Assembly (NCBI GenBank): GCA_016206285.1
Contig: JACQRW010000006.1
Span: 1 to 62,441 of the forward strand
DNA from: Candidatus Sungiibacteriota bacterium
GTDB taxonomy: Bacteria; Patescibacteriota; Minisyncoccia; Sungbacterales; HO2-52-23
DNA length: 62,441 bases
Reading direction: 5' to 3'
The position numbers and the translations under genes are program-made. Below, in pieces: positions 12,411 through 62,441 of this stretch (position 1 is its first letter; each line of letters begins with the position of its first letter). The notes under the pieces are model-generated. The model saw only the letters and a list, made by a program, of their open reading frames with translations, had not been told where the DNA came from and searched no databases.

Positions 12411-13703
12411 TCAGCCGGAATTCCGGATGGTATAATTGCCTTCCCGGATGCTGTGGCGTGCTAAAAAGTTGCTGACGCTTCTTACTAAAGAACACTCTAC
12501 TTCATCGGGATTCGCCCCCGGTGGAATATCAAACGTCAAAATAAGGGTGCGAGTTTGCTTTTGATCAAGAAGCTGCAGCGGGACTTTCATCAGCTGGTTC
12601 GCATACTGCCCTATTTCCACAAAATGCATATGCGCATTTGCGGAGATCATAAAATCGTCTTCGGGATCCAGCATCGGCCGGCCACGTTTTTTATCTTGTA
12701 ACCTGGTACTCACAATATAGATGTCCATGCCGGCTTTTTCTTTTTCTAAAAGCGCTTCCCTTAAATATGAAAGAGTGTTTGCCACGATAACCAACCTCGA
12801 TACAGTCTGCGGATCTTGCTCCAAAACCTTTTCCAGCATCCAGTCGCCGATTTTTTTCCCGTCAGATGCCATAATCAGATCAAAACCTGCAGTACAAACT
12901 TCCTCTTGCGTCCTCGAGTGCATCCGCGGAGATCCGATCATCACGGGACAAGCGGCGTGTTCGCAATCCATACCGATTTCGTTGACAAGAATGTGGTAGA
13001 GCACCCTATAATCAGACACTCCGACGTTGTGCAGTTGCATCGCGCTGGCAAAAGACGCACCGTTGACAAGAGCAAAAATTTTCTTTGCAGGAGTCGGTTC
13101 TTTCGGACTTGTGTGCATAACCCGAACAGCATCGGAATGAAAAGATAAAGCGATATTTTCTATCGCAGTCGAGATATCTATAAAATCCAGGTTACACAGA
13201 CTGGAGACTGCCGCATGAATTTTTTCGGATGTTTTGCCGCCGTCTCTGTCTCCCGTTGTTGTTCCCACAAAGTGAACCGCAATCCCGCTTCGCGCATATT
13301 CCAAGAGCATCTCCAAAGTGCAATCGGATATTTCATTGGACACTAGGGTAATGGACGTTATCCTCCTGTCCATTGTCTGAAGAAATCCTTCAATTTCAAG
13401 CTGCACATCGTGCGCCAGCCAGACGTTGAATCCGGCACCTTTCGCTACATCTTGAATGCGTTGGGAAAGATTGACAGGAGCCACCATAATCGGCTCACGA
13501 ATGCATGGAAGCGCTTTCCCCACTTTGTTTACTAAAAAATCAAAAAGGTTAGGATAATGTACCATCTCAACGCGATGCGGATCCAGCGCCCTTCTAAATG
13601 ACGAGCCGTGAACAATGATAAACTGCCCACCCTGCGTATTATCGGGGTTTATTTTTTCGAGAATCTTTTGTCCGTCTTCCGGGCTCAATACGGCATGTTC
13701 CAT
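12411..13703 (-). CDS. Protein with two tandem degenerate NYN/LabA-like modules (paralog of 11352..12230)
   Basis: Two modules align to the neighbour (FIIVHGSSF...TLVSNEISDC...GIAVHFV and FALVNGASF...VIVANTLSY...MDIYIVS). The first acidic position is H in one module and N in the other. SD AAAGGAG upstream. Confidence 0.5.
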   Translation of the reverse strand: MEHAVLSPEDGQKILEKINPDNTQGGQFIIVHGSSFRRALDPHRVEMVHYPNLFDFLVNKVGKALPCIREPIMVAPVNLSQRIQDVAKGAGFNVWLAHDVQLEIEGFLQTMDRRITSITLVSNEISDCTLEMLLEYARSGIAVHFVGTTTGDRDGGKTSEKIHAAVSSLCNLDFIDISTAIENIALSFHSDAVRVMHTSPKEPTPAKKIFALVNGASFASAMQLHNVGVSDYRVLYHILVNEIGMDCEHAACPVMIGSPRMHSRTQEEVCTAGFDLIMASDGKKIGDWMLEKVLEQDPQTVSRLVIVANTLSYLREALLEKEKAGMDIYIVSTRLQDKKRGRPMLDPEDDFMISANAHMHFVEIGQYANQLMKVPLQLLDQKQTRTLILTFDIPPGANPDEVECSLVRSVSNFLARHSIREGNYTIRNSG

Positions 13704-13764
13704 TGCACTCGCTCCTTTTTGTTATATTGTTGTCAAAGATAGAGAAATACTATCGCACGGGCAT

Positions 13765-13793
13765 AAAAAAACAAGAGCCCCGATAGAGGCTCT
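13765..13793 (-). terminator. Rho-independent terminator after the 130-aa gene
   Basis: Minus strand: AGAGCC-TCTATCGG-GGCTCT followed by TGTTTTTTT. Confidence 0.6.
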
Positions 13794-13818
13794 TTGCAAA
13801 TAAAAATACCACTCGCAC

Positions 13819-14211
13819 TTATGTTATTCTTTTATACCTTCGCCGGGGAGCTGCCACTGTTTCCTCTAAAGCTGCTTTTAAATCCTCGGGGATGGGCTTT
13901 GTCACATCGTAGGTATCGGGCCAACCGGAAATGCGTACGCGCGTAACATCGCCGAAAAAGTGGCCGTAGGCTTCCCTCTTTTCGTCTCGCAATCGCTTCC
14001 GATCAAGAATTCCCTTGGTAACAAGTGCTGAAACATTTGAGGACAGCGATTTATCTCCGTACAATATCTTCGCACCTTTCTTAAAATCAAGACGAGTAGG
14101 GGTAGTTTGATCGGCCAAGCTTGGCACAACCCAGAGAAAAAGCGTTGCGGCCTGCAACAGACTGAGCGTCGGGATCTGTTCGTCATCACCCACTCTGATA
14201 TTATTTTTCAT
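13819..14211 (-). CDS. Small hypothetical protein, possibly winged-helix DNA-binding
   Basis: 130 aa with SD AGGAGGG upstream. The segment SLSSNVSALVTKGILDRKR resembles a MarR-type recognition helix (weak). Confidence 0.35.
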   Translation of the reverse strand: MKNNIRVGDDEQIPTLSLLQAATLFLWVVPSLADQTTPTRLDFKKGAKILYGDKSLSSNVSALVTKGILDRKRLRDEKREAYGHFFGDVTRVRISGWPDTYDVTKPIPEDLKAALEETVAAPRRRYKRIT

Positions 14212-14285
14212 ACCTGCCCTCCTGTGCTATTTTTCAAAGAATTTTTACCAACCGTATCGCACAAAACGCAAGAAATCAAGCCACG

Positions 14286-15104
14286 CTAAAACAGCGCTGG
14301 TTGCGCGTCCTGCGCCATGACATATGACTCGTCGGTCGGCTCGATCTTGAGGATGCGGTTGATGCGAAACATGCGCACGCTTTTGCGCAGATGGCAGTAT
14401 GCCTCGATCTCGTCGCCTTTGATCGCGTATACGTCTATCAGTCGCTTTTTTTTGAAGCCCAATCCGTCATGGTCTTCGGAAGACACATATTCAATGGCAA
14501 GGCGTTTGCGGTTGGCAAGCGCTTCTTCAAGCAGCACGCGGCTTGGTTTGGCATAGCCTTTTGCCCACTCGACCGGCACGGAGTGTATCTTGCTGTCGGA
14601 AAACGAACGAAACAGAATATGCCCGTTCTTTTTTCCATACTCGTACACGTCGCGCGTCAGGCGCACGTCGTCAAGGCAGTATTTTTTTACCTCTTCTACG
14701 CGCCCCTGGCGGAACCATTCAAGCGCCTCAAGCCCGTGCCCGGATTTTGATTCGCCAAGCGTCGCTTCCGCAACCGCGTTGAGCCCCACGCGATGCCCGA
14801 GAAAATCCACCGCATCCTGATAGAGATCGGTAACCGCAATTTTTTCAAATACCACAAGATTTTTGATATACGGCTTCAAAACCGGAATATCAAAATGGTT
14901 GATATTAAACCCGATAATATGGCCGGTTTGGTGCAGCATGTCTTCAAGCTGCGGCAGTTCGTGCTCTTCAAGCGCAACAAAGAGATCCTTATCATACGAA
15001 TATACGCCTGCAACCGAAATCCCGAGCTGCGTTATATTCCGCTCCCCTCCCACCTCCGCAAAAGATTTTTTTGTTTCCAGATCAATAACCAGAGTGTCAT
15101 GCAT
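14286..15104 (-). CDS. DEDD-type 3'-5' exonuclease (RNase H-like fold) fused to a C-terminal WYL domain
   Basis: VIDLET, FNINHFD and YCLDDV exonuclease motifs. C-terminus RLIDVYAIKGDEIEAYCHLRKSVRMFRINRI is WYL-like. The start at 15104 is supported by TTGATT-17-TATGCT-6-ATG. Confidence 0.7.
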   Translation of the reverse strand: MHDTLVIDLETKKSFAEVGGERNITQLGISVAGVYSYDKDLFVALEEHELPQLEDMLHQTGHIIGFNINHFDIPVLKPYIKNLVVFEKIAVTDLYQDAVDFLGHRVGLNAVAEATLGESKSGHGLEALEWFRQGRVEEVKKYCLDDVRLTRDVYEYGKKNGHILFRSFSDSKIHSVPVEWAKGYAKPSRVLLEEALANRKRLAIEYVSSEDHDGLGFKKKRLIDVYAIKGDEIEAYCHLRKSVRMFRINRILKIEPTDESYVMAQDAQPALF

Positions 15105-15110
15105 TTTAGG

Positions 15111-15139
15111 AGCATACGGCAAGAAGGAGAAAAAATCAA
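15111..15139 (-). promoter_or_regulatory. Sigma70-like promoter, leaderless geometry (exonuclease-WYL gene)
   Basis: Minus strand: TTGATT-17 nt-TATGCT-6 nt-ATG. Confidence 0.5.
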
Positions 15140-15189
15140 ACTGAAATAATAAAAGGCTGCACCAGAATCTATCTGATGCAGCCATCACT

Positions 15190-15639
15190 TCACCTTTGAC
15201 ATGCCGTATCTATGACCCATTGGGCTATAACGCGCATTGTCACATCCTTTTCGGCATCATTAAGTTGCTCCCATTGCTTTGTCAAATAAACAAACTTGTT
15301 ATTGTCCGCAAGCGGGAGCACACTCCGTCCAACCAGTTGCTCGATTCTAAGATATGCTGAAATTGTGTTATTTCGGGGAATAATCAGAATACGAATTTGC
15401 GGAACTTCATGGGAGGCAGGCACAATGATACCCCGACGATTTTCAATCATATTTCGAAAAAAACTTTCGCCGGGTCCGGCAACATTGCTCTTAAACAAGA
15501 GGGTAAATGTTCTCCCCGCATACTCAAAATGCGTAGCGGGACAGGAATCATCAACGGAACTTTGTATGGCGCTCTCGGCCATGGCTCGGTTCGACCACAA
15601 TGTTATGATCACAAATAGACAGGAAAGCATTTTTTTCAT
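15190..15639 (-). CDS. Secreted hypothetical protein
   Basis: 149 aa with signal peptide MKKMLSCLFVIITLWSNRAMA. Confidence 0.5.
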   Translation of the reverse strand: MKKMLSCLFVIITLWSNRAMAESAIQSSVDDSCPATHFEYAGRTFTLLFKSNVAGPGESFFRNMIENRRGIIVPASHEVPQIRILIIPRNNTISAYLRIEQLVGRSVLPLADNNKFVYLTKQWEQLNDAEKDVTMRVIAQWVIDTACQR

Positions 15640-15756
15640 ATCTATTTCCCCTTTTTCATTGTCGGTAAAAAGAACTTATGCATTTTTAACATAGATGCTA
15701 TAAAAAATCAAAAAGCGCAATCTTTTGATCAGCGCTTGATAATGCTTCCTCTAAAG

Positions 15757-16620
15757 TTAAAGTCGGGCAAAAAATCGTTCCAGCCCCTTGTGGTGCATCG
15801 TGTCTTCATATCCCTGTGCAATCGTTTTCCGCAAACGGGCCAAACGCGTATCAATCCGCCAAACCGGTAACTTTTCCTCCGGACAAATAACAGCCACATT
15901 TTTTCTACGCATGATCTTGTGCATATTCTCAAGCGTTTTATTGTACCGCATCGGCATGCTCCAAATTGCTTTCTGCAGCTCGGGAGATTCATGGCGAAGC
16001 AGCGCCCACCGAAGCAGTGTACGCGCCGCACACATGTGCGCAATCGGACGATACGGCCGCGTGAGTATCAAAAGAATATTTTGTTCATTTTGAATACGCT
16101 CCAATCCCAGCACGCTTCCGATGGTTCCGTCATAATACATCTGGTCATATATTTCGACCGGCCCGCTGCTGCCAAAATAAGGAACCATGCAGGTAGCATG
16201 CAACAGCTTATAAAAGCTGGCGCTGCTGTCTTTTTTAAAAAATCTGGATTGTCCCGTTTTGGCATTGGTAACGCCTATATCCATCTGTGCCGGATTGTCA
16301 TGAAATGCATCAAGATCCAAGGCAAATTTACCCTGATACACAACGCGATCCACCAAAAAATCAATATCCATGACTCCGCGTCCGGTCGGATGCCGCAACG
16401 GGGTTATGAATTTTTTTGATCGGAAAAGAAATTCCCAAATGGGGATGATGATGTCCGTTTGCCGGCTGATGACATACGACCAATTTATGATCAGTCCGGA
16501 GCTTCCCCTAACGCCCTTGAGTGAATCAAGTCCAAATCGCTTTTCCAGTGCTTTAATCACACCCGCATGATACGCCGAAGCGCATCCTCCGCCTTGTCCG
16601 GCAACGCAAAATCCTGCCAT
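15757..16620 (-). CDS. Patatin-like phospholipase family protein
   Basis: GQGGGCASAYHAGVIKAL oxyanion region, RGSSGL nucleophile region, YYDGT Asp motif. The ATG at 16620 has SD AAGGAG; the ORF extends to 16743. Confidence 0.65.
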   Translation of the reverse strand: MAGFCVAGQGGGCASAYHAGVIKALEKRFGLDSLKGVRGSSGLIINWSYVISRQTDIIIPIWEFLFRSKKFITPLRHPTGRGVMDIDFLVDRVVYQGKFALDLDAFHDNPAQMDIGVTNAKTGQSRFFKKDSSASFYKLLHATCMVPYFGSSGPVEIYDQMYYDGTIGSVLGLERIQNEQNILLILTRPYRPIAHMCAARTLLRWALLRHESPELQKAIWSMPMRYNKTLENMHKIMRRKNVAVICPEEKLPVWRIDTRLARLRKTIAQGYEDTMHHKGLERFFARL

Positions 16621-16718
16621 GGCACGGCTCCTTGTTGAGAGATCTATGTAAATGTCCCGCCTTATGATAAATGAAAAAAGCGCGATCGCCAAGGATCGCG
16701 CCAACATGTCCGAAGAAA

Positions 16719-17468
16719 TTATCGATCTGATTTGATCCGCCAAATACAGACGATGATCCCGACCAGTAGAATACCCATCAAAACATATGTGAATGAACTC
16801 GGCTCTTCCACTGGCGTCACTACCTCATTGGAAGCCGGCTGCCTGGGCAATCCGGTTTGTATTGGAGGAGAAAGCGAGAATCCAAAATCCGGAGGAGGCG
16901 CAACCATGGTGGTCGGAGGTACGGATATTTCAGTTGGCGGCAATGGAAATAATGGCGGCGGAGGCGGTGTACTTACAGGAGGTTGATCTAGCCATATGAC
17001 CGGAGGAAGGAAAGCGGACGGCGGTCTTTCCGGAGGGGGAACCGCGCCATTGCAGCACCGTTTCAGCACCATATGTCCTTCGCTATCCTCAAGAATTTGC
17101 GTACCTGCGGGCACTGCTATGGATTTTTTGGTCCACTGCACGCCCAATCTCGGATGCCTATATTGAACAAACAATCTTTGCGTATTTAGAATCACGCGAT
17201 CACGAGCAGTGGCAAGATTAAACCCCGCAAAAACAATATGTGAGTGGTTTTCGCGGTCATAACATCCGCCTTTCCAGACTGCATAGCGCGGCGCGTCATA
17301 ATGGCTTGCAACATCGGGTTTCAACAGCTCCTGCTCTATAATCGCCTGAATCCTTTCGATTTCCCGCTCAAGTTCGAACGATCCATGGGTCCTGCCACTA
17401 CCCCGATAAAAATACAAGCCAACAAGAAAAAGGAGGCCGCATAACAAAAAAAAGAGCAGTGTCTTCAT
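16719..17468 (-). CDS. Proline-rich membrane-anchored hypothetical protein
   Basis: N-terminal TM helix, PPPPP-rich linker, C-terminal EEPSS + TM + RIKSDR tail. SD AAAGGAG upstream. Confidence 0.5.
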   Translation of the reverse strand: MKTLLFFLLCGLLFLVGLYFYRGSGRTHGSFELEREIERIQAIIEQELLKPDVASHYDAPRYAVWKGGCYDRENHSHIVFAGFNLATARDRVILNTQRLFVQYRHPRLGVQWTKKSIAVPAGTQILEDSEGHMVLKRCCNGAVPPPERPPSAFLPPVIWLDQPPVSTPPPPPLFPLPPTEISVPPTTMVAPPPDFGFSLSPPIQTGLPRQPASNEVVTPVEEPSSFTYVLMGILLVGIIVCIWRIKSDR

Positions 17469-39164: not shown

Positions 39165-41903
39165 TTAAAAGTATTTTTTCTGTTCTCCCCAATTATACCC
39201 CGCCTTTGCGTCCACCACAAGCGGGACTTCGAGATCGGCAACGCTTTCCATAATGTGTTTTATCTGCGGAATAAGCTTTTCCGCGCGGCTCTCGGCAATC
39301 TCAAACACCAGTTCATCGTGCACCTGCAAAAGCATGCGGACATATTGGCCGAATTTTTCCCTATCCACCCACTCACGCACCTTTACCATGGCAAGCTTGA
39401 TAATGTCACCTGTAGCGCTGCCCTGCACCGGCATGTTTACGGCCATGCGCTCGGCCTCGCGCCGCAGCTGGAAATTCGGCGAGAAAATTTCGGGGATATA
39501 TCTGCGCCTGCCAAAGATCGTTTCCACATACCCATGCTCGCGCGCAAACTCTTTCGTATTTTCTATGAAAGCCGCGATGCCGGAAAAATCGCGGAAGTAT
39601 TCATCAATGAAACGCTTGGCATCTGGCCGCGAAAATCCGGTTGCCTCGGCAAACGCATTTTGCCCCATGCCGTAGAGTACGCCAAAATTGAGCGTCTTTG
39701 CCGCACGGCGCAATTCAGGCGTCACCGCCTCCGGCGCTACATGATACACGGCCGCCGCGGTAATGGTATGGATGTCGGCTCCGTTTCGGAACGCCTCGAT
39801 CATTTTTTCATCGTGCGCCATGTGTGCGGCGACGCGAAGCTCAATCTGCGAGTAGTCAAACGACACCAGCAAAAAATCTTTGTCGGCAACAAATGCCTTG
39901 CGCACTTCGCGTCCGTATTCGGACAAGATGGGAATATTCTGCAGATTCGGGTTGGACGACGAAAGCCTGCCGGTTGACGCGCCGGTCTGATTGAATGTTG
40001 TGTGCAGCCGGCCGTCCGCCGGATCAACCAATTCCGGAAGCGCGTCCACATAGGTGTTTTTGAGCTTCGCAAGTTCGCGGTAACCAAGCACTTTTTCTAT
40101 GATGGGGTTCTCGCTCTTCAGTTTCTCAAGCTCGGACTCGCGCGTGGAGATCACGCCGCCTTTCGCGGTCTTGCGAAGCCCCTGAGTGCCGATGCCGAGC
40201 GTGCTGAATAAAACATGGGAAAGCTGCTGCGAGGAATTAATATTGAACTCGCTTCCGGCAAGAGCATAGATATCTTCGGTTAATTTTTTCAGTTCGCGAT
40301 CAAGCTTCTTTCCGATCTGCGCCAGCAGTTTCTGGTCAAGCAAAATACCGCAATCCTCCATATCCGCCAGCACCGGAGCAAGAGGCAGCTCAATGTCCCG
40401 GAACATACGCTCCGCGTTCGCAGCCGCAAGCTTAGCCTGCAAAGAAACAACTACTTCAAAAAAATACCGCAGATCATCGGCAACATTCGCCTGCACAGGC
40501 CACCCCAGTTCGCGCGATGCCACGGCATCCCACGAAAAATTCCCTGCCGAAGAATCAACCAGATACGCGGCAAGCATGGAGTCGAATTCGATCTCCCCTG
40601 CCTTGATACCTTGCGCCCCGAGAAACCGGATAATGGATTTCGCGTCATGACATGCAAACCCGCCGGCTTCAAAAAATTTTTTGGCATCGCGGCACTGCAG
40701 CGTTATATCATCCAGTAGAAACATTCTCACATTCTCAAGAATATTGGAATGTTTATTAAATCTCTTCTTCGTGGTTGGTTCGTCTATAATACAGATGCGC
40801 CCATCAATAAGCAGCAGTCCGATATGGTTACGCTGCCCGCCACCTTTTAGATACGCACTGAACCCTTTTGCGCTTCGGATCATGGGTATCTCCTTCTTTT
40901 CTTGCACAACTCCGGCAACACCAGCTTGGTCGGGCAGATCCAGCAGCGAAGGTTGCGCCGCAACCGTTTCTTTTGTTTTGCGTTTTCCTTTTTTCCCCGC
41001 GTCTTTTTCCGCACCAACAGTGCCTGCAAATCCCGGCAGCCGCTTGATTAAACTTAAAAATCCGTACTTTCGAAAAATTTCCGCGGCAGCGGCCTCGTGC
41101 GATCCGTCATGCCACATTACATCTTCCGGCTTCACTTCAATGGGCACATGCTGGTCTATTCGCGCAAGCTCCCGCGAAAACAGAGCATCTTCTTTCCCTT
41201 CGCGCAATTTGGCAGCAACCGTCTCAGAGATTTCCGCTTTTCCTTTTTCAAGCGCCCCATAGATACCATCAATCGAACCGAATTTCTGAAGCAGATCAGT
41301 TGCGGTTTTCTCGCCGATCCCTTTCACGCCTTTAATGTTGTCCGATACGTCCCCTTTCAGCCCTTTGAAGTCAATCAGCTGCTCCGGTTCAAGGCCGTAC
41401 CGCCGGCGCACCTCCTCTTCGCCGTACTCCGCGATATCGTTGACACCCTGCTTCATCGTATATACTTTCACGTTGGGACGCACCAGCTGCAAGGCATCCG
41501 AATCTCCGGTGATGATAATCACCTCACAGTCTTCTTCATCTGAAAGTTCCCGCGTCATGGTACCGATAATATCATCCGCCTCGTAGCCCTCTTTCTGGAA
41601 CACCGGTATACCGAACGCCTCCACCAGTTCATGCACTTTTGCAAACTGGCTTTTCAGTTCTTCCGGCGCCGGCGGCCGATGCGCTTTGTATTCCGCATAC
41701 TGTTCGTGCCGAAATGTCTTGCCGGGCATATCAAAAGCCGCGGCCAGATAGTCCGGCTGCAATTCTTTTAAAATCCGCAGCAAGATGGATGCGAATCCGT
41801 ACACCGCGTTCACCGGCTCTCCTCCGTTTGCCGTCAGCGGCGGCAGAGCATGGAACGCCCGATGAATAATCGCATGCGAATCAATGAGTACTATTTTTTT
41901 CAT
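39165..41903 (-). CDS. polA: DNA polymerase I
   Basis: 5'-nuclease N-terminus MKKIVLIDSHAIIHRAF; DYSQIELR, KTLNFGVLYGM and QVHDELVFE polymerase motifs. The longer ORF start at 42017 overlaps a separate small ORF. Confidence 0.9.
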   Translation of the reverse strand: MKKIVLIDSHAIIHRAFHALPPLTANGGEPVNAVYGFASILLRILKELQPDYLAAAFDMPGKTFRHEQYAEYKAHRPPAPEELKSQFAKVHELVEAFGIPVFQKEGYEADDIIGTMTRELSDEEDCEVIIITGDSDALQLVRPNVKVYTMKQGVNDIAEYGEEEVRRRYGLEPEQLIDFKGLKGDVSDNIKGVKGIGEKTATDLLQKFGSIDGIYGALEKGKAEISETVAAKLREGKEDALFSRELARIDQHVPIEVKPEDVMWHDGSHEAAAAEIFRKYGFLSLIKRLPGFAGTVGAEKDAGKKGKRKTKETVAAQPSLLDLPDQAGVAGVVQEKKEIPMIRSAKGFSAYLKGGGQRNHIGLLLIDGRICIIDEPTTKKRFNKHSNILENVRMFLLDDITLQCRDAKKFFEAGGFACHDAKSIIRFLGAQGIKAGEIEFDSMLAAYLVDSSAGNFSWDAVASRELGWPVQANVADDLRYFFEVVVSLQAKLAAANAERMFRDIELPLAPVLADMEDCGILLDQKLLAQIGKKLDRELKKLTEDIYALAGSEFNINSSQQLSHVLFSTLGIGTQGLRKTAKGGVISTRESELEKLKSENPIIEKVLGYRELAKLKNTYVDALPELVDPADGRLHTTFNQTGASTGRLSSSNPNLQNIPILSEYGREVRKAFVADKDFLLVSFDYSQIELRVAAHMAHDEKMIEAFRNGADIHTITAAAVYHVAPEAVTPELRRAAKTLNFGVLYGMGQNAFAEATGFSRPDAKRFIDEYFRDFSGIAAFIENTKEFAREHGYVETIFGRRRYIPEIFSPNFQLRREAERMAVNMPVQGSATGDIIKLAMVKVREWVDREKFGQYVRMLLQVHDELVFEIAESRAEKLIPQIKHIMESVADLEVPLVVDAKAGYNWGEQKKYF

Positions 41904-41941
41904 AGAAATCGAGGACCCGCGCGAGTCCTCTTGTCTTTTAC

Positions 41942-42109
41942 CTATGGCCACAAAACGACTTCGTCTTTTTTCCGATAAAGCGCTTGTTGATCCTTCAGAC
42001 ATATGCGATGACACCATTTACCGCCGTCCAACGCCCCATCCTCAGGCTTCTCTATCAGCTTCGGGCAATACGTGCATTCTTCCGGCTTCCATTTTGTGCC
42101 AAATTGCAT
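41942..42109 (-). CDS. Small Cys-rich (zinc-ribbon-like) hypothetical protein, 55 aa
   Basis: Manual read: MQFGTKWKPEECTYCPKL...GKWCHRICLKD... preceded by SD AAGGAGG. Below the ORF-track size cutoff. Confidence 0.45.
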   Translation of the reverse strand: MQFGTKWKPEECTYCPKLIEKPEDGALDGGKWCHRICLKDQQALYRKKDEVVLWP

Positions 42110-61373: not shown

Positions 61374-62441
61374 TTACGAAACCCTGATCGGCATGATGAC
61401 GTAGAGGAGGGTGTTGTCGGTGCGGTCGTGCATGAGGGCCGGGGCGGTTTCGTTGTTCATGCCAAAAAATATTTCATCGCCGCGCAGTGTGGACAGACCG
61501 TCCATAAGATAACGATAATTAAAACTGACCTGGCTGGCTTTTCCGGAAAGTGTAATGGGAAAGCGCGTGTGATATTCTCCGATCTCCTGATTGGATGAAG
61601 ATATTTCACATTCGGTTTCCGTGAATGAGATCGTCACATCCTGCAACTTGGAGGCAAATATGCTTGATGAGCGCACTGCCTGTAAAAGTTCCGTTCGTTT
61701 CAGAAAACACGTAGTTTCGAACTGGCTCGGGATAATGGCGCCGTACTCCGGAAAATTTCCTTCTATGAGCCGGGAAACGATGCGCATGCCCTCGCGCTCG
61801 ATCAATATTTGATTTTCACCCATACTCATGGAAACCTGATCGTCGCCATCCTGGCCGGACGGATCAAGAATGCGAGAAAGCTCGCTTGCCATGCGTTGCG
61901 GCAAAATAAAAGAGAATTGCGACTGATCCTCCACGCCGGTTCCTTGCTTTGCCATAGATAAGGGAATTGTCTTTTCAGCAAGCCGAAACGTATCGGTTGC
62001 GGCAAGATGCAGGCTGCGCAAACCGATTTTACAGTTGATACCCGCAAGCTCCGGCTTAAATTCGGAAAGCGAAACTGCGGGCAGCACGCTTGCGATTCCG
62101 TTTTGCAGTTCACTGCCACTTATCTGAAAAGAAGCGTTCTTTTTTATTGTTGGGATTAAAGGAAAATCATCAGCAGACATGCTATTAAGCCGGGCATCTC
62201 GCGTATCGCTTTTTATAATCACGCTGCCGCCTTTTTCTTCGAGTTGTATTTTATCATCGTGCCGCGAAGAACCGGCCATAGACTGTACAAGCGCTGAGGC
62301 GATTTTTGCCGGCACGCTTACTTTACCCTCTTTGCCTCCGCTGCCCGAAACCGTCAGTTGTATTGCATATTCAAGATTAGTCGCCGTCACCGTAAGTGTG
62401 TTTTCCCGGACCTCAAGCAGTATATTTCCTAAAATCGGCAA
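61374..62441 (-). CDS. dnaN: DNA polymerase III beta sliding clamp, truncated by the window edge
   Basis: LEVRENTLTVTATNLE... three-domain clamp pattern. The apparent TTG start at the edge is an artefact. Confidence 0.9.
   Translation of the reverse strand: MPILGNILLEVRENTLTVTATNLEYAIQLTVSGSGGKEGKVSVPAKIASALVQSMAGSSRHDDKIQLEEKGGSVIIKSDTRDARLNSMSADDFPLIPTIKKNASFQISGSELQNGIASVLPAVSLSEFKPELAGINCKIGLRSLHLAATDTFRLAEKTIPLSMAKQGTGVEDQSQFSFILPQRMASELSRILDPSGQDGDDQVSMSMGENQILIEREGMRIVSRLIEGNFPEYGAIIPSQFETTCFLKRTELLQAVRSSSIFASKLQDVTISFTETECEISSSNQEIGEYHTRFPITLSGKASQVSFNYRYLMDGLSTLRGDEIFFGMNNETAPALMHDRTDNTLLYVIMPIRVS

Follow-up and report, generated by a model that had tools for sequence, protein, structure and literature searches.

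The exonuclease-WYL gene and its start

The stretch of DNA analysed here, referred to throughout as the window, is the 62,441-nt contig JACQRW010000006.1 (positions 1 to 62,441) of the Candidatus Sungiibacteriota bacterium assembly GCA_016206285.1. It carries a complete minus-strand gene whose 272-residue (aa) product combines a 3'-5' exonuclease domain of the type that proofreads for family-B DNA polymerases (PolB), a WYL domain and a short C-terminal tail ending in a candidate motif for binding the β sliding clamp (Table 1). The gene is single-copy in a genome of 754 kb on 24 contigs that is 91% complete. An earlier interpretation made from the letters of this DNA (hereafter the sequence-only reading) had described a DEDD exonuclease fused directly to a WYL domain without a helix-turn-helix (HTH). 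The strings that it quoted, VIDLET, NINHFD and YCLDDV for the nuclease and LIDVYAIKGDEIEAYCHLRKSVRMFRINRI (residues 222-251) for the WYL segment, are all found in the translation, and in the Pfam comparison that it had proposed PF13482 and PF13280 both score above their cut-offs, with the WYL match significant and the acidic residues of the exonuclease retained. The clamp-type tail, the DEDDy/PolB-type nature of the nuclease, the optional status of the WYL domain and the kinship with exonucleases linked to the MrfA helicase had escaped that reading. The fusion as such is already catalogued and uncharacterised: WYL fusions to exonuclease domains are mentioned by Gozzi et al. 2022 (PMC9186387), and NCBI names these homologs 'WYL domain-containing protein'. 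Searches of the full-text literature returned no study that deals with the exonuclease-WYL family or its clamp-type tail, nor any on a clamp-bound exonuclease of the PolB type from Patescibacteria.

Table 1. Positions of the exonuclease-WYL gene, its parts and the other features of the window (residue numbers refer to the 272-aa protein).
Feature	Position	Strand	Basis or remark
Complete gene, 272 codons and TAG stop (14286-14288)	14286..15104	-	Translation; encodes exonuclease-WYL-tail protein
DEDDy 3'-5' exonuclease domain, family-B-polymerase proofreading type, residues 1-185	14550..15104	-	Pfam PF13482, AlphaFold, structure matches
Exo I motif VIDLET, residues 6-11 (D8, E10)	15072..15089	-	D8 and E10 in 49/49
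Exo II motif NINHFD, residues 67-72 (N67, D72)	14889..14906	-	D72 in 49/49, N67 in 48/49
Exo III motif YCLDDV, residues 142-147 (Y142, D146)	14664..14681	-	Y142 and D146 in 49/49
WYL domain, residues 186-258 (Y206, R221, R240, R244, R247, R250)	14331..14549	-	One helix and five-stranded Sm-like barrel
Low-confidence (disordered) C-terminal tail, residues 259-272	14289..14330	-	Last two 10-residue blocks: mean pLDDT 69 and 47
Candidate β-clamp-binding motif, pentapeptide Q268-P-A-L-F272	14289..14303	-
Promoter: -35 TTGATT (15134-15139), 17-nt spacer, -10 TATGCT (15111-15116), 6 nt, ATG	15111..15139	-
Intrinsic terminator of upstream gene	15145..15183	-	12-bp stem with 7 GC pairs (hairpin 15183..15155), then T-run
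dnaN (β sliding clamp), proposed docking partner	61374..62441	-	PF00712; N-terminus cut by contig end
Pol I, 5'-3' exonuclease and polymerase domain	39165-42017	-
Orphan ORF, 130 aa, directly downstream of gene	13819-14211	-	AGGAGG-type ribosome-binding site (by eye)
Two NYN-like paralogs, 301 and 430 aa	11352-12257 and 12411-13703	-	One cluster in all-against-all comparison
Fic-domain protein, 442 aa	9215-10543	-	Pfam Fic E 1.2e-21; PADLOC SoFic model E 4.4e-50
Patatin-like phospholipase with DUF6363 domain	15757-16743	-	Between PHP gene and exonuclease gene
Pro-rich membrane protein / small secreted protein	16719-17468 and 15190-15639	-	Replace relatives' DUF192 + S9 hydrolase gene

The longest open reading frame (ORF) at the locus, 14286..15188 on the minus strand, begins with GTG and would encode 300 aa, and the ATG at 15104 yields the 272-aa product that is 28 codons shorter. 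This shorter start, which the sequence-only reading had preferred, is confirmed by homologs of 271-273 aa that share the same initiator Met in the context M-x-D-T-L-V-I-D. Moreover, the terminator hairpin of the upstream gene falls within the 28 extra codons, which supports both the shorter start and a separate transcription unit.

The leaderless promoter described by the sequence-only reading, TTGATT-17-TATGCT-6-ATG, is present at 15139..15102 of the minus strand (by eye), but a consensus promoter scanner omits it, since 8 of 12 positions match and the scanner needs 9; the promoter claim therefore rests on conservation across loci. Of the window and 33 related loci, 28 could be scored (four were left out for a start that was not located, one for short upstream DNA and one, L033, for having no called family ORF). 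A TAnnnT element lies 4-9 nt upstream of the start in 24 of these 28 and is joined by a TTG at a spacing of 16-19 nt in 20, and a Shine-Dalgarno-like tetramer was seen in 0/28. The full arrangement occurs in only 9 of 236 other plus-strand genes of the same loci, which were scored from longest-ORF starts that are possibly wrong. The prediction that the gene has a promoter of its own and yields a leaderless mRNA is thus well supported by comparison. For the stretch 13700-15700 no RNA run is listed, and only six DNA metagenome runs contain all or part of it. In an uncultivated lineage, a conserved leaderless promoter of this kind serves well as a marker of the signals for transcription and translation.

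An intact exonuclease domain of the PolB proofreading type

Pfam assigns residues 45-155 to RNase_H_2 (PF13482) with 26.6 bits (cut-off 22, E 6.4e-06). The PolB-related exonuclease family PF10108 stays below its cut-off (18.1 versus 24 bits), PF00929 gives no match to the 272-aa protein at E≤0.01, and NCBIfam holds no family for the exonuclease-WYL protein or for five neighbours. The features are more than a chance occurrence: matches at E≤0.001 number 907 among proteins of comparable length, and in the top 120, with lengths of 270-347 aa, identity is 65-92%. Across 49 aligned fused homologs (33-92% identical) the residues D8, E10, D72, Y142 and D146 are invariant. The active site is intact, and the sequence-only reading was right in taking the acidic residues of a DEDD exonuclease to be preserved; the Y-x3-D spacing in Exo III places the enzyme in the DEDDy subclass.

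The full protein was predicted by AlphaFold with a predicted local distance difference test (pLDDT) score of 92.8 and a predicted template modelling (pTM) score of 0.86, the exonuclease domain ranging from 90 to 98 in pLDDT. Residues 3-183 superpose on residues 136-334 of an archaeal PolB (Z 15.2, root-mean-square deviation (rmsd) 2.6 Å over 156 residues; VIA), the proofreading domains of Pol epsilon and E. coli Pol II reach Z about 14.5 against the same domain, and the best Foldseek matches are again PolB exonuclease domains (E 8.3e-06). The likeness to PolB proofreading domains and to PF10108/COG3298 extends to the DEDDy motif set and the Y-C-x-x-D form of Exo III, and a survey of the RNase H-like superfamily clusters PF13482 and PF10108 with the PolB exonuclease domains (PMC3985635). 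Unlike the family-B polymerases, however, the protein has no polymerase domain, and PF10108 remains below threshold.

PF13482 is also the family of MrfB/YprB, a 3'-5' DNA exonuclease that acts in mitomycin repair in Bacillus subtilis. MrfB is described as structurally nearest to PolB proofreading domains, as a DEDDh enzyme (His258) with C-terminal tetratricopeptide repeats (TPR), and as working with MrfA (PMC11194089). The protein studied here differs in being DEDDy (Y142 invariant in 49/49) and in having a WYL domain and no TPR, in a genome in which no MZB/MrfA (PF09369) was found. The solved MrfB chain was unmatched at E≤1 by either the single-sequence or the profile search. Membership in the MrfB family proper was accordingly dropped as a candidate assignment, there being no match to MrfB, Tyr in place of His and no TPR.

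A WYL domain with the arginine ladder of single-stranded DNA binders

WYL (PF13280) is matched over residues 192-255 with 29.1 bits (cut-off 21.8, E 9.9e-07), and residues 186-272 modelled alone with AlphaFold (alignment of 28 sequences) reach a pLDDT of 88. When this model was compared with 48,161 representative chains (VIA, a search independent of Foldseek), the top nine matches were all WYL domains with Z 9.7-12.0, the best being BrxR (Z 12.0, rmsd 2.2 Å, 76 residues), and the model also matches PafBC (Z 11.9, rmsd 1.7 Å) and the single-stranded DNA (ssDNA) complexes of CapW (Z 10.9) and DriD (Z 10.7); Hfq and Sm proteins follow the WYL domains with Z about 8. Searching PDB with the family profile retrieved PafBC (E 9.6e-5) and, from two Pif1 helicases of thermophiles, the WYL domain (E 1.1e-4 and 2.4e-4); a search with the single protein gave weak PafC/PafBC matches only (E about 0.1). 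Pfam reports no HTH family, and no WCX dimerization domain follows the barrel, only 14 disordered residues. These results bear out the claim that the C-terminal part is a WYL segment fused to a nuclease without an HTH.

The residues R240, R244, R247 and R250 align with R491, R495, R498 and R501 of the Pif1 helicase of Deferribacter desulfuricans (DdPif1), which are reported to contact ssDNA and to be shared with TePif1, DriD and PafBC (PMC9964779). Among the 49 fused homologs Arg is found at position 221 in 36, at 240 in 34, at 244 in 37, at 247 in 25 and at 250 in 37, and position 206 is Tyr in 47. Retention of the arginine ladder known from the Pif1, DriD and PafBC WYL domains favours ssDNA over a small signalling ligand as the probable partner of the domain. 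The proposal of the sequence-only reading that a ligand or ssDNA gates the exonuclease is thereby narrowed: gating is possible and the ladder favours ssDNA for it, while a small signalling ligand is not favoured.

A close architectural parallel is provided by the bacterial WYL-Pif1 proteins (Thermotoga elfii, Deferribacter desulfuricans, Sulfurihydrogenibium; 8BNS/8BNV), likewise enzymes with a C-terminal WYL domain, no HTH and the R-x3-R-x2-R-x2-R ladder. In Pif1 the WYL domain is described as an accessory ssDNA-binding module required for full activity (PMC9964779). These proteins are, however, superfamily 1 helicases of thermophile hosts, whereas here a 3'-5' exonuclease bears the WYL domain, a tail follows it and the host belongs to the Patescibacteria. 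The WYL transcription factors DriD, PafBC, CapW and BrxR share the fold and the conserved basic residues, and for DriD, PafBC and CapW a complex with ssDNA has been solved or shown (DriD: PMC9186387). They differ in having an N-terminal winged HTH, a C-terminal WCX domain and transcription as their output; the present protein has neither domain, and its output would be catalysis.

A conserved C-terminal tail with a candidate clamp-binding motif

The predicted disordered tail ends in the pentapeptide QPALF. A pattern Qxx[LIMV][FLI] is present within the last eight residues of 119 of 121 proteins (the query and its top 120 homologs), as opposed to 0.18% of interior eight-residue windows. It recurs in 17 of the 19 best matches from other Patescibacteria genomes, whose exonuclease domains are 35-48% identical, and an 18th ends in IPSLF. 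The bacterial clamp-binding motif is given as QL(D/S)LF, with variation tolerated and a location in flexible termini (PMC6511837), and we infer that the tail could dock the enzyme on the β clamp. Among 150 representatives of the wider family the motif is C-terminal in 26 and, in the sister clade, N-terminal in 5 (e.g. MPQLSLFD). We also observed that solo exonucleases of the helicase-linked clade described below (P0174, P0193, P0203 and P0231) carry a canonical QLSLF/QLDLF-type motif at the N-terminus together with a conserved ...VPVSW end. Lineages may therefore differ in the end of the domain at which this short motif was placed.

Small 3'-5' DEDD exonucleases with a short clamp motif (a predicted one in the present case) are known from the clamp-bound DnaQ enzymes, namely E. 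coli epsilon and a mycobacterial noncanonical DnaQ. The latter is reported to bind the clamp and to co-proofread beside an active PHP domain of DnaE (PMC11348249). The DnaQ enzymes nevertheless differ in being DEDDh proteins of PF00929 without a WYL domain, whereas the protein in the window is DEDDy and gives no PF00929 match.

The prospective docking partner, dnaN, lies at the far end of the window, and its product lacks roughly the first 20-25 residues, judged from a PF00712 match that begins at model position 27. Structure prediction of a complex between residues 186-272 and the own DnaN (both chains entered as alignments, DnaN N-terminally cut) scored 0.44, against 0.00 for the best of three controls, with a verdict of weak support. 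In the benchmark for this score the mark is reached by 58 of 80 solved complexes and by 2 of 110 mismatched pairs, and scores of 0.60 or below include only 7 of the 80 solved complexes and both of the passing mismatches. The runs share at least 88% of contacts with a partner pLDDT of at least 77; clamp-peptide complexes are, however, textbook structures that have already been solved, and a pass may reflect memory of them or likeness to them.

The WYL domain is an optional addition to a widespread exonuclease

Among 301 genomes drawn evenly from the phylum, 79 match the protein at E≤0.001, one weak match (G154) included. Fused forms, defined by a match past query residue 258, are present in only four (G000, which is the own genome, and G270, G123 and G295), and 16 of the 20 best matches are ORFs of 192-229 aa without a WYL domain. 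Close fused homologs on named public contigs belong to Candidatus Sungbacteria/Sungiibacteriota and the 'Parcubacteria group'. Given the few fused forms and the prevalence among the best matches of the type of about 192 aa that lacks it, the WYL domain is an optional addition at the C-terminus of a widespread exonuclease that otherwise stands alone, and the protein in the window is the Sungbacteria version of a Patescibacteria enzyme that usually has no WYL domain and keeps the clamp-type tail.

A FastTree phylogeny was built from 142 exonuclease domains, nine fragmentary rows having been dropped. It splits into two halves with 98% SH-like support. The helicase-linked half (70 rows) holds 12 helicase fusions, 38 proteins with N-terminal extensions, 19 solo forms and one WYL form, and the other half (72 rows) holds 36 solo forms, 35 WYL forms and one N-terminal extension. 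WYL and solo forms interleave on the tree, and at least five changes between them are forced by well-supported branches, although the tree leaves 71 of its 139 inner branches without resolution and truncated ORFs are among the solo rows (e.g. P0132), such that gains and losses of the WYL domain are only bounded. Among the 150 representatives at 50% clustering, in those of ~920-1180 aa the exonuclease is C-terminal to DEAD, Helicase_C, WHD_HRQ1 and MZB domains of the MrfA/YprA type. By these domain assignments the closest relatives outside Patescibacteria are exonucleases fused to MrfA/YprA repair helicases.

Two atypical arrangements were encountered. A candidate split form at locus L053, with separate exonuclease and WYL genes, had been suggested by a tblastn row that reached residue 260 and was rejected, as the ORFs there encode a 191-aa exonuclease and then a membrane protein. 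In P0238 (439 aa) the first ~125 exonuclease residues are joined to an ADP-dependent phosphofructokinase/glucokinase domain, which is probably a chimera of gene calling or assembly.

Proofreading repertoire and the proposed role of the protein

We searched the genome (91% complete) for other enzymes of this kind and found no PF00929 (DnaQ/RNase T) and no PF01612 gene; the only WYL match is the exonuclease-WYL gene itself. Pol I combines a polymerase domain with a 5'-3' exonuclease, and its middle domain reaches 24.4 bits against the vestigial type PF22619, below the threshold of 27. As neither a DnaQ-type exonuclease nor an active Pol I proofreading domain was detected, the searches yielded no DEDD 3'-5' exonuclease apart from the exonuclease-WYL protein. 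In an alignment with Taq DnaE, the PHP domain of the own DnaE has the same residues at HxH, D, H, E, H, C and D-x-H. On the basis of this nine-residue signature, which was quoted from PMC12926913 and mapped onto the alignment by eye, the DnaE PHP domain is probably an active proofreader, and the presence of a DEDD exonuclease beside it resembles the mycobacterial arrangement described above.

Our preferred interpretation, to which we give a probability of roughly 0.55, is that the protein is a clamp-tethered 3'-5' DNA exonuclease that uses its WYL domain as a handle or switch for ssDNA and serves in housekeeping repair or proofreading in these ultra-small groundwater bacteria. The DEDDy domain would use two-metal catalysis to take nucleotides off a free 3' end, with the WYL barrel holding ssDNA beside that end and raising affinity, as in Pif1; the barrel may in addition restrict activation of the nuclease to sites with exposed ssDNA. 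The disordered QPALF tail would direct the enzyme, docked on the β clamp, to primer ends, gaps and stalled forks, where mismatched, frayed or damaged 3' ends could be trimmed during replication-coupled repair or gap filling, in the manner of an accessory proofreader or repair exonuclease that works beside the DnaE PHP domain. That the role is a housekeeping one is suggested by the single copy and the conserved housekeeping gene order (see below), and kinship with DNA repair by the other half of the tree, which holds the MrfA/YprA helicase fusions. The domain identities, the intact active site, the conservation of tail and promoter, the distribution and the synteny are observations, whereas DNA as substrate, the binding of the clamp, the binding of ssDNA by the WYL domain and the role in the cell are inferences.

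Several observations weigh against this interpretation. The enzyme is dispensable, since 222 of the 301 sampled Patescibacteria genomes have no match, and clamp binding does not extend to the whole fused family, since the strict tail motif occurs in only 13 of 36 deeper fused clusters. QPALF departs from QL(D/S)LF in its second and third residues, motifs of this class are short and degenerate, and the support from the predicted DnaN complex is weak. With respect to the WYL domain, the literal Trp-Tyr-Leu tripeptide is absent and the PafC alignment shows D-E-I in its place; the tripeptide is degenerate in DriD too, where it reads NYL (PMC9186387), and is eponymous rather than strictly defining. 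A handle and a gate, furthermore, are indistinguishable from sequence. Finally, PF00929 is present in 23 of 52 genomes with a strong match (E≤1e-18) and in 154 of 249 others (a hand count over kin that are not independent); the family does not cleanly replace DnaQ-type enzymes, and this weak trend is not used as support.

A bolder form of the same proposal, which we advance only tentatively, is that the protein represents a previously unrecognised clamp-bound proofreading or repair exonuclease of Patescibacteria that descends from, or shares ancestry with, the PolB proofreading domain, and that the WYL domain, acquired in Sungbacteria and scattered other lineages, acts as a direct ssDNA switch, rendering the enzyme active only where clamp and exposed ssDNA meet, such as a gap or a frayed or mismatched primer end. 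If true, it would be the first case of a WYL domain exerting allosteric control over catalysis at the replication fork and not over transcription.

The substrate could alternatively be RNA, the protein being an RNase D-like 3'-end exoribonuclease whose WYL/Sm-like barrel binds RNA, structured or single-stranded, such as tRNA or rRNA precursors and whose tail has another role. This is a point against a DNA exonuclease in so far as the DEDDy class includes RNases such as RNase D and NrnC: RNase D of T. brucei is among the Foldseek matches (E 1.6e-4, TMt 0.39), NrnC is a weak match of the family profile (E 0.78), and a WYL fusion to a '3'->5' exoRNase' is noted by Makarova et al. 2014 (PMC4012209). 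The Hfq and Sm proteins that come next among the structural matches of the WYL model would fit an RNA ligand, a 3' exoribonuclease would otherwise be missing from a genome without PF00929 and PF01612, and the related loci include the PF04308 RNase H-like gene, a β-CASP/RMMBL gene and archease. Yet the proofreading domains of DNA polymerases clearly outscore RNase D, MrfA/YprA DNA repair helicases are the fusion partners in the sister clade, the terminal Qxx(L)F tail found across the phylum is a signature of DNA replication and repair, and the ligand characterised for the WYL domain in DriD, PafBC, CapW and Pif1 is ssDNA. We therefore regard an RNA substrate as unlikely.

We consider it more improbable still that the protein takes the place of the epsilon subunit and acts as the chief proofreader of replication. 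The lack of a PF00929 gene in the 91%-complete genome and the combination of a clamp-type tail with a polymerase proofreading fold speak for such a role, but the metal-ligand positions of the DnaE PHP domain match Taq DnaE and imply an intrinsic proofreader, and both the absence of the family from most of the sampled genomes and the coexistence with PF00929 in 23 of its 52 carriers argue against it.

A clamp-tethered exonuclease with a WYL handle or switch would matter in several respects. WYL domains are understood almost only as sensors of transcription factors, the exceptions being the Pif1 helicases and a Cas13d accessory protein, and a small, soluble, two-domain WYL-nuclease offers a simple system for asking how ssDNA binding alters catalysis. 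Conservation of the clamp-type tail also suggests a factor of genome maintenance in Patescibacteria, whose tiny genomes are without many of the repair and proofreading genes known from textbooks. Should the tail bind DnaN, a new exonuclease family would join the bacterial clamp interactome and replication fidelity in Patescibacteria would become testable.

Gene neighbourhood

The usual gene order in 33 related loci is Mur ligase, archease, PHP phosphoesterase, DUF192 + S9 hydrolase (22 loci), the exonuclease gene and PF04308 (22 loci), after which come an ABC transporter or a β-CASP nuclease and then a SLOG protein; the exonuclease gene is syntenic at 60-92% identity across 26 Sungbacteria-type loci. 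In the window both genes flanking it differ from those of the related loci. On the upstream side the relatives' DUF192 + S9 hydrolase gene is replaced as given in Table 1, where the patatin-like protein with DUF6363, the Pro-rich membrane protein and the small secreted protein are assigned to the intervals 15757-16743, 16719-17468 and 15190-15639 in that order. Downstream, the 130-aa orphan, which has no Pfam, NCBIfam or PADLOC match, stands where 22 of the related loci have the PF04308 gene (YkuK-like, RNase H-like), and PF04308 was not found anywhere in the own genome. The match of the two NYN-like paralogs to an NYN nuclease is sub-threshold (21.8 versus 24.2 bits), the longer one resembles a tandem duplication of a module, and relatives of the pair adjoin the exonuclease-WYL gene in three other loci (L021, L029 and L047). 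The Fic protein lies ~3.7 kb downstream of the gene, past the two NYN-like genes, in a block that related loci do not have at the corresponding syntenic site.

The neighbours that resemble defence genes are thus a local feature without conservation, and conserved adjacency to a defence or damage-response operon was not seen, the neighbours in the 33 related loci being housekeeping genes. PADLOC matches the exonuclease-WYL protein with generic CRISPR-associated WYL models only (residues 170-267, E 5.5e-08). The defence flavour that the sequence-only reading had given to the WYL-nuclease is not supported, in view of the single copy, of housekeeping synteny across Sungbacteria and of most relatives having no WYL domain. 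A stand-alone anti-phage or stress effector, in which the WYL domain would sense phage ssDNA, damaged DNA or a nucleotide messenger and unleash the exonuclease allosterically, is therefore the least probable of the alternatives and in our view a distant one: WYL domains are enriched near defence loci, the PADLOC models and the SoFic-model protein are as described, and the pTM suggests a fixed interdomain contact that might pass a signal, but no PADLOC model spans the exonuclease part, the SoFic/NYN islet is specific to the window and replaces PF04308, about half of the clade's representative clusters lack the WYL domain and keep the enzyme and often the tail, and a clamp-type tail suits genome maintenance.

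In the 22 loci that have it, the PF04308 gene (e.g. L034:6825-7322, plus strand, E 2.1e-36) begins ~10-70 nt past the stop codon of the exonuclease gene, be the latter fused or WYL-less, and the two genes may form an operon.

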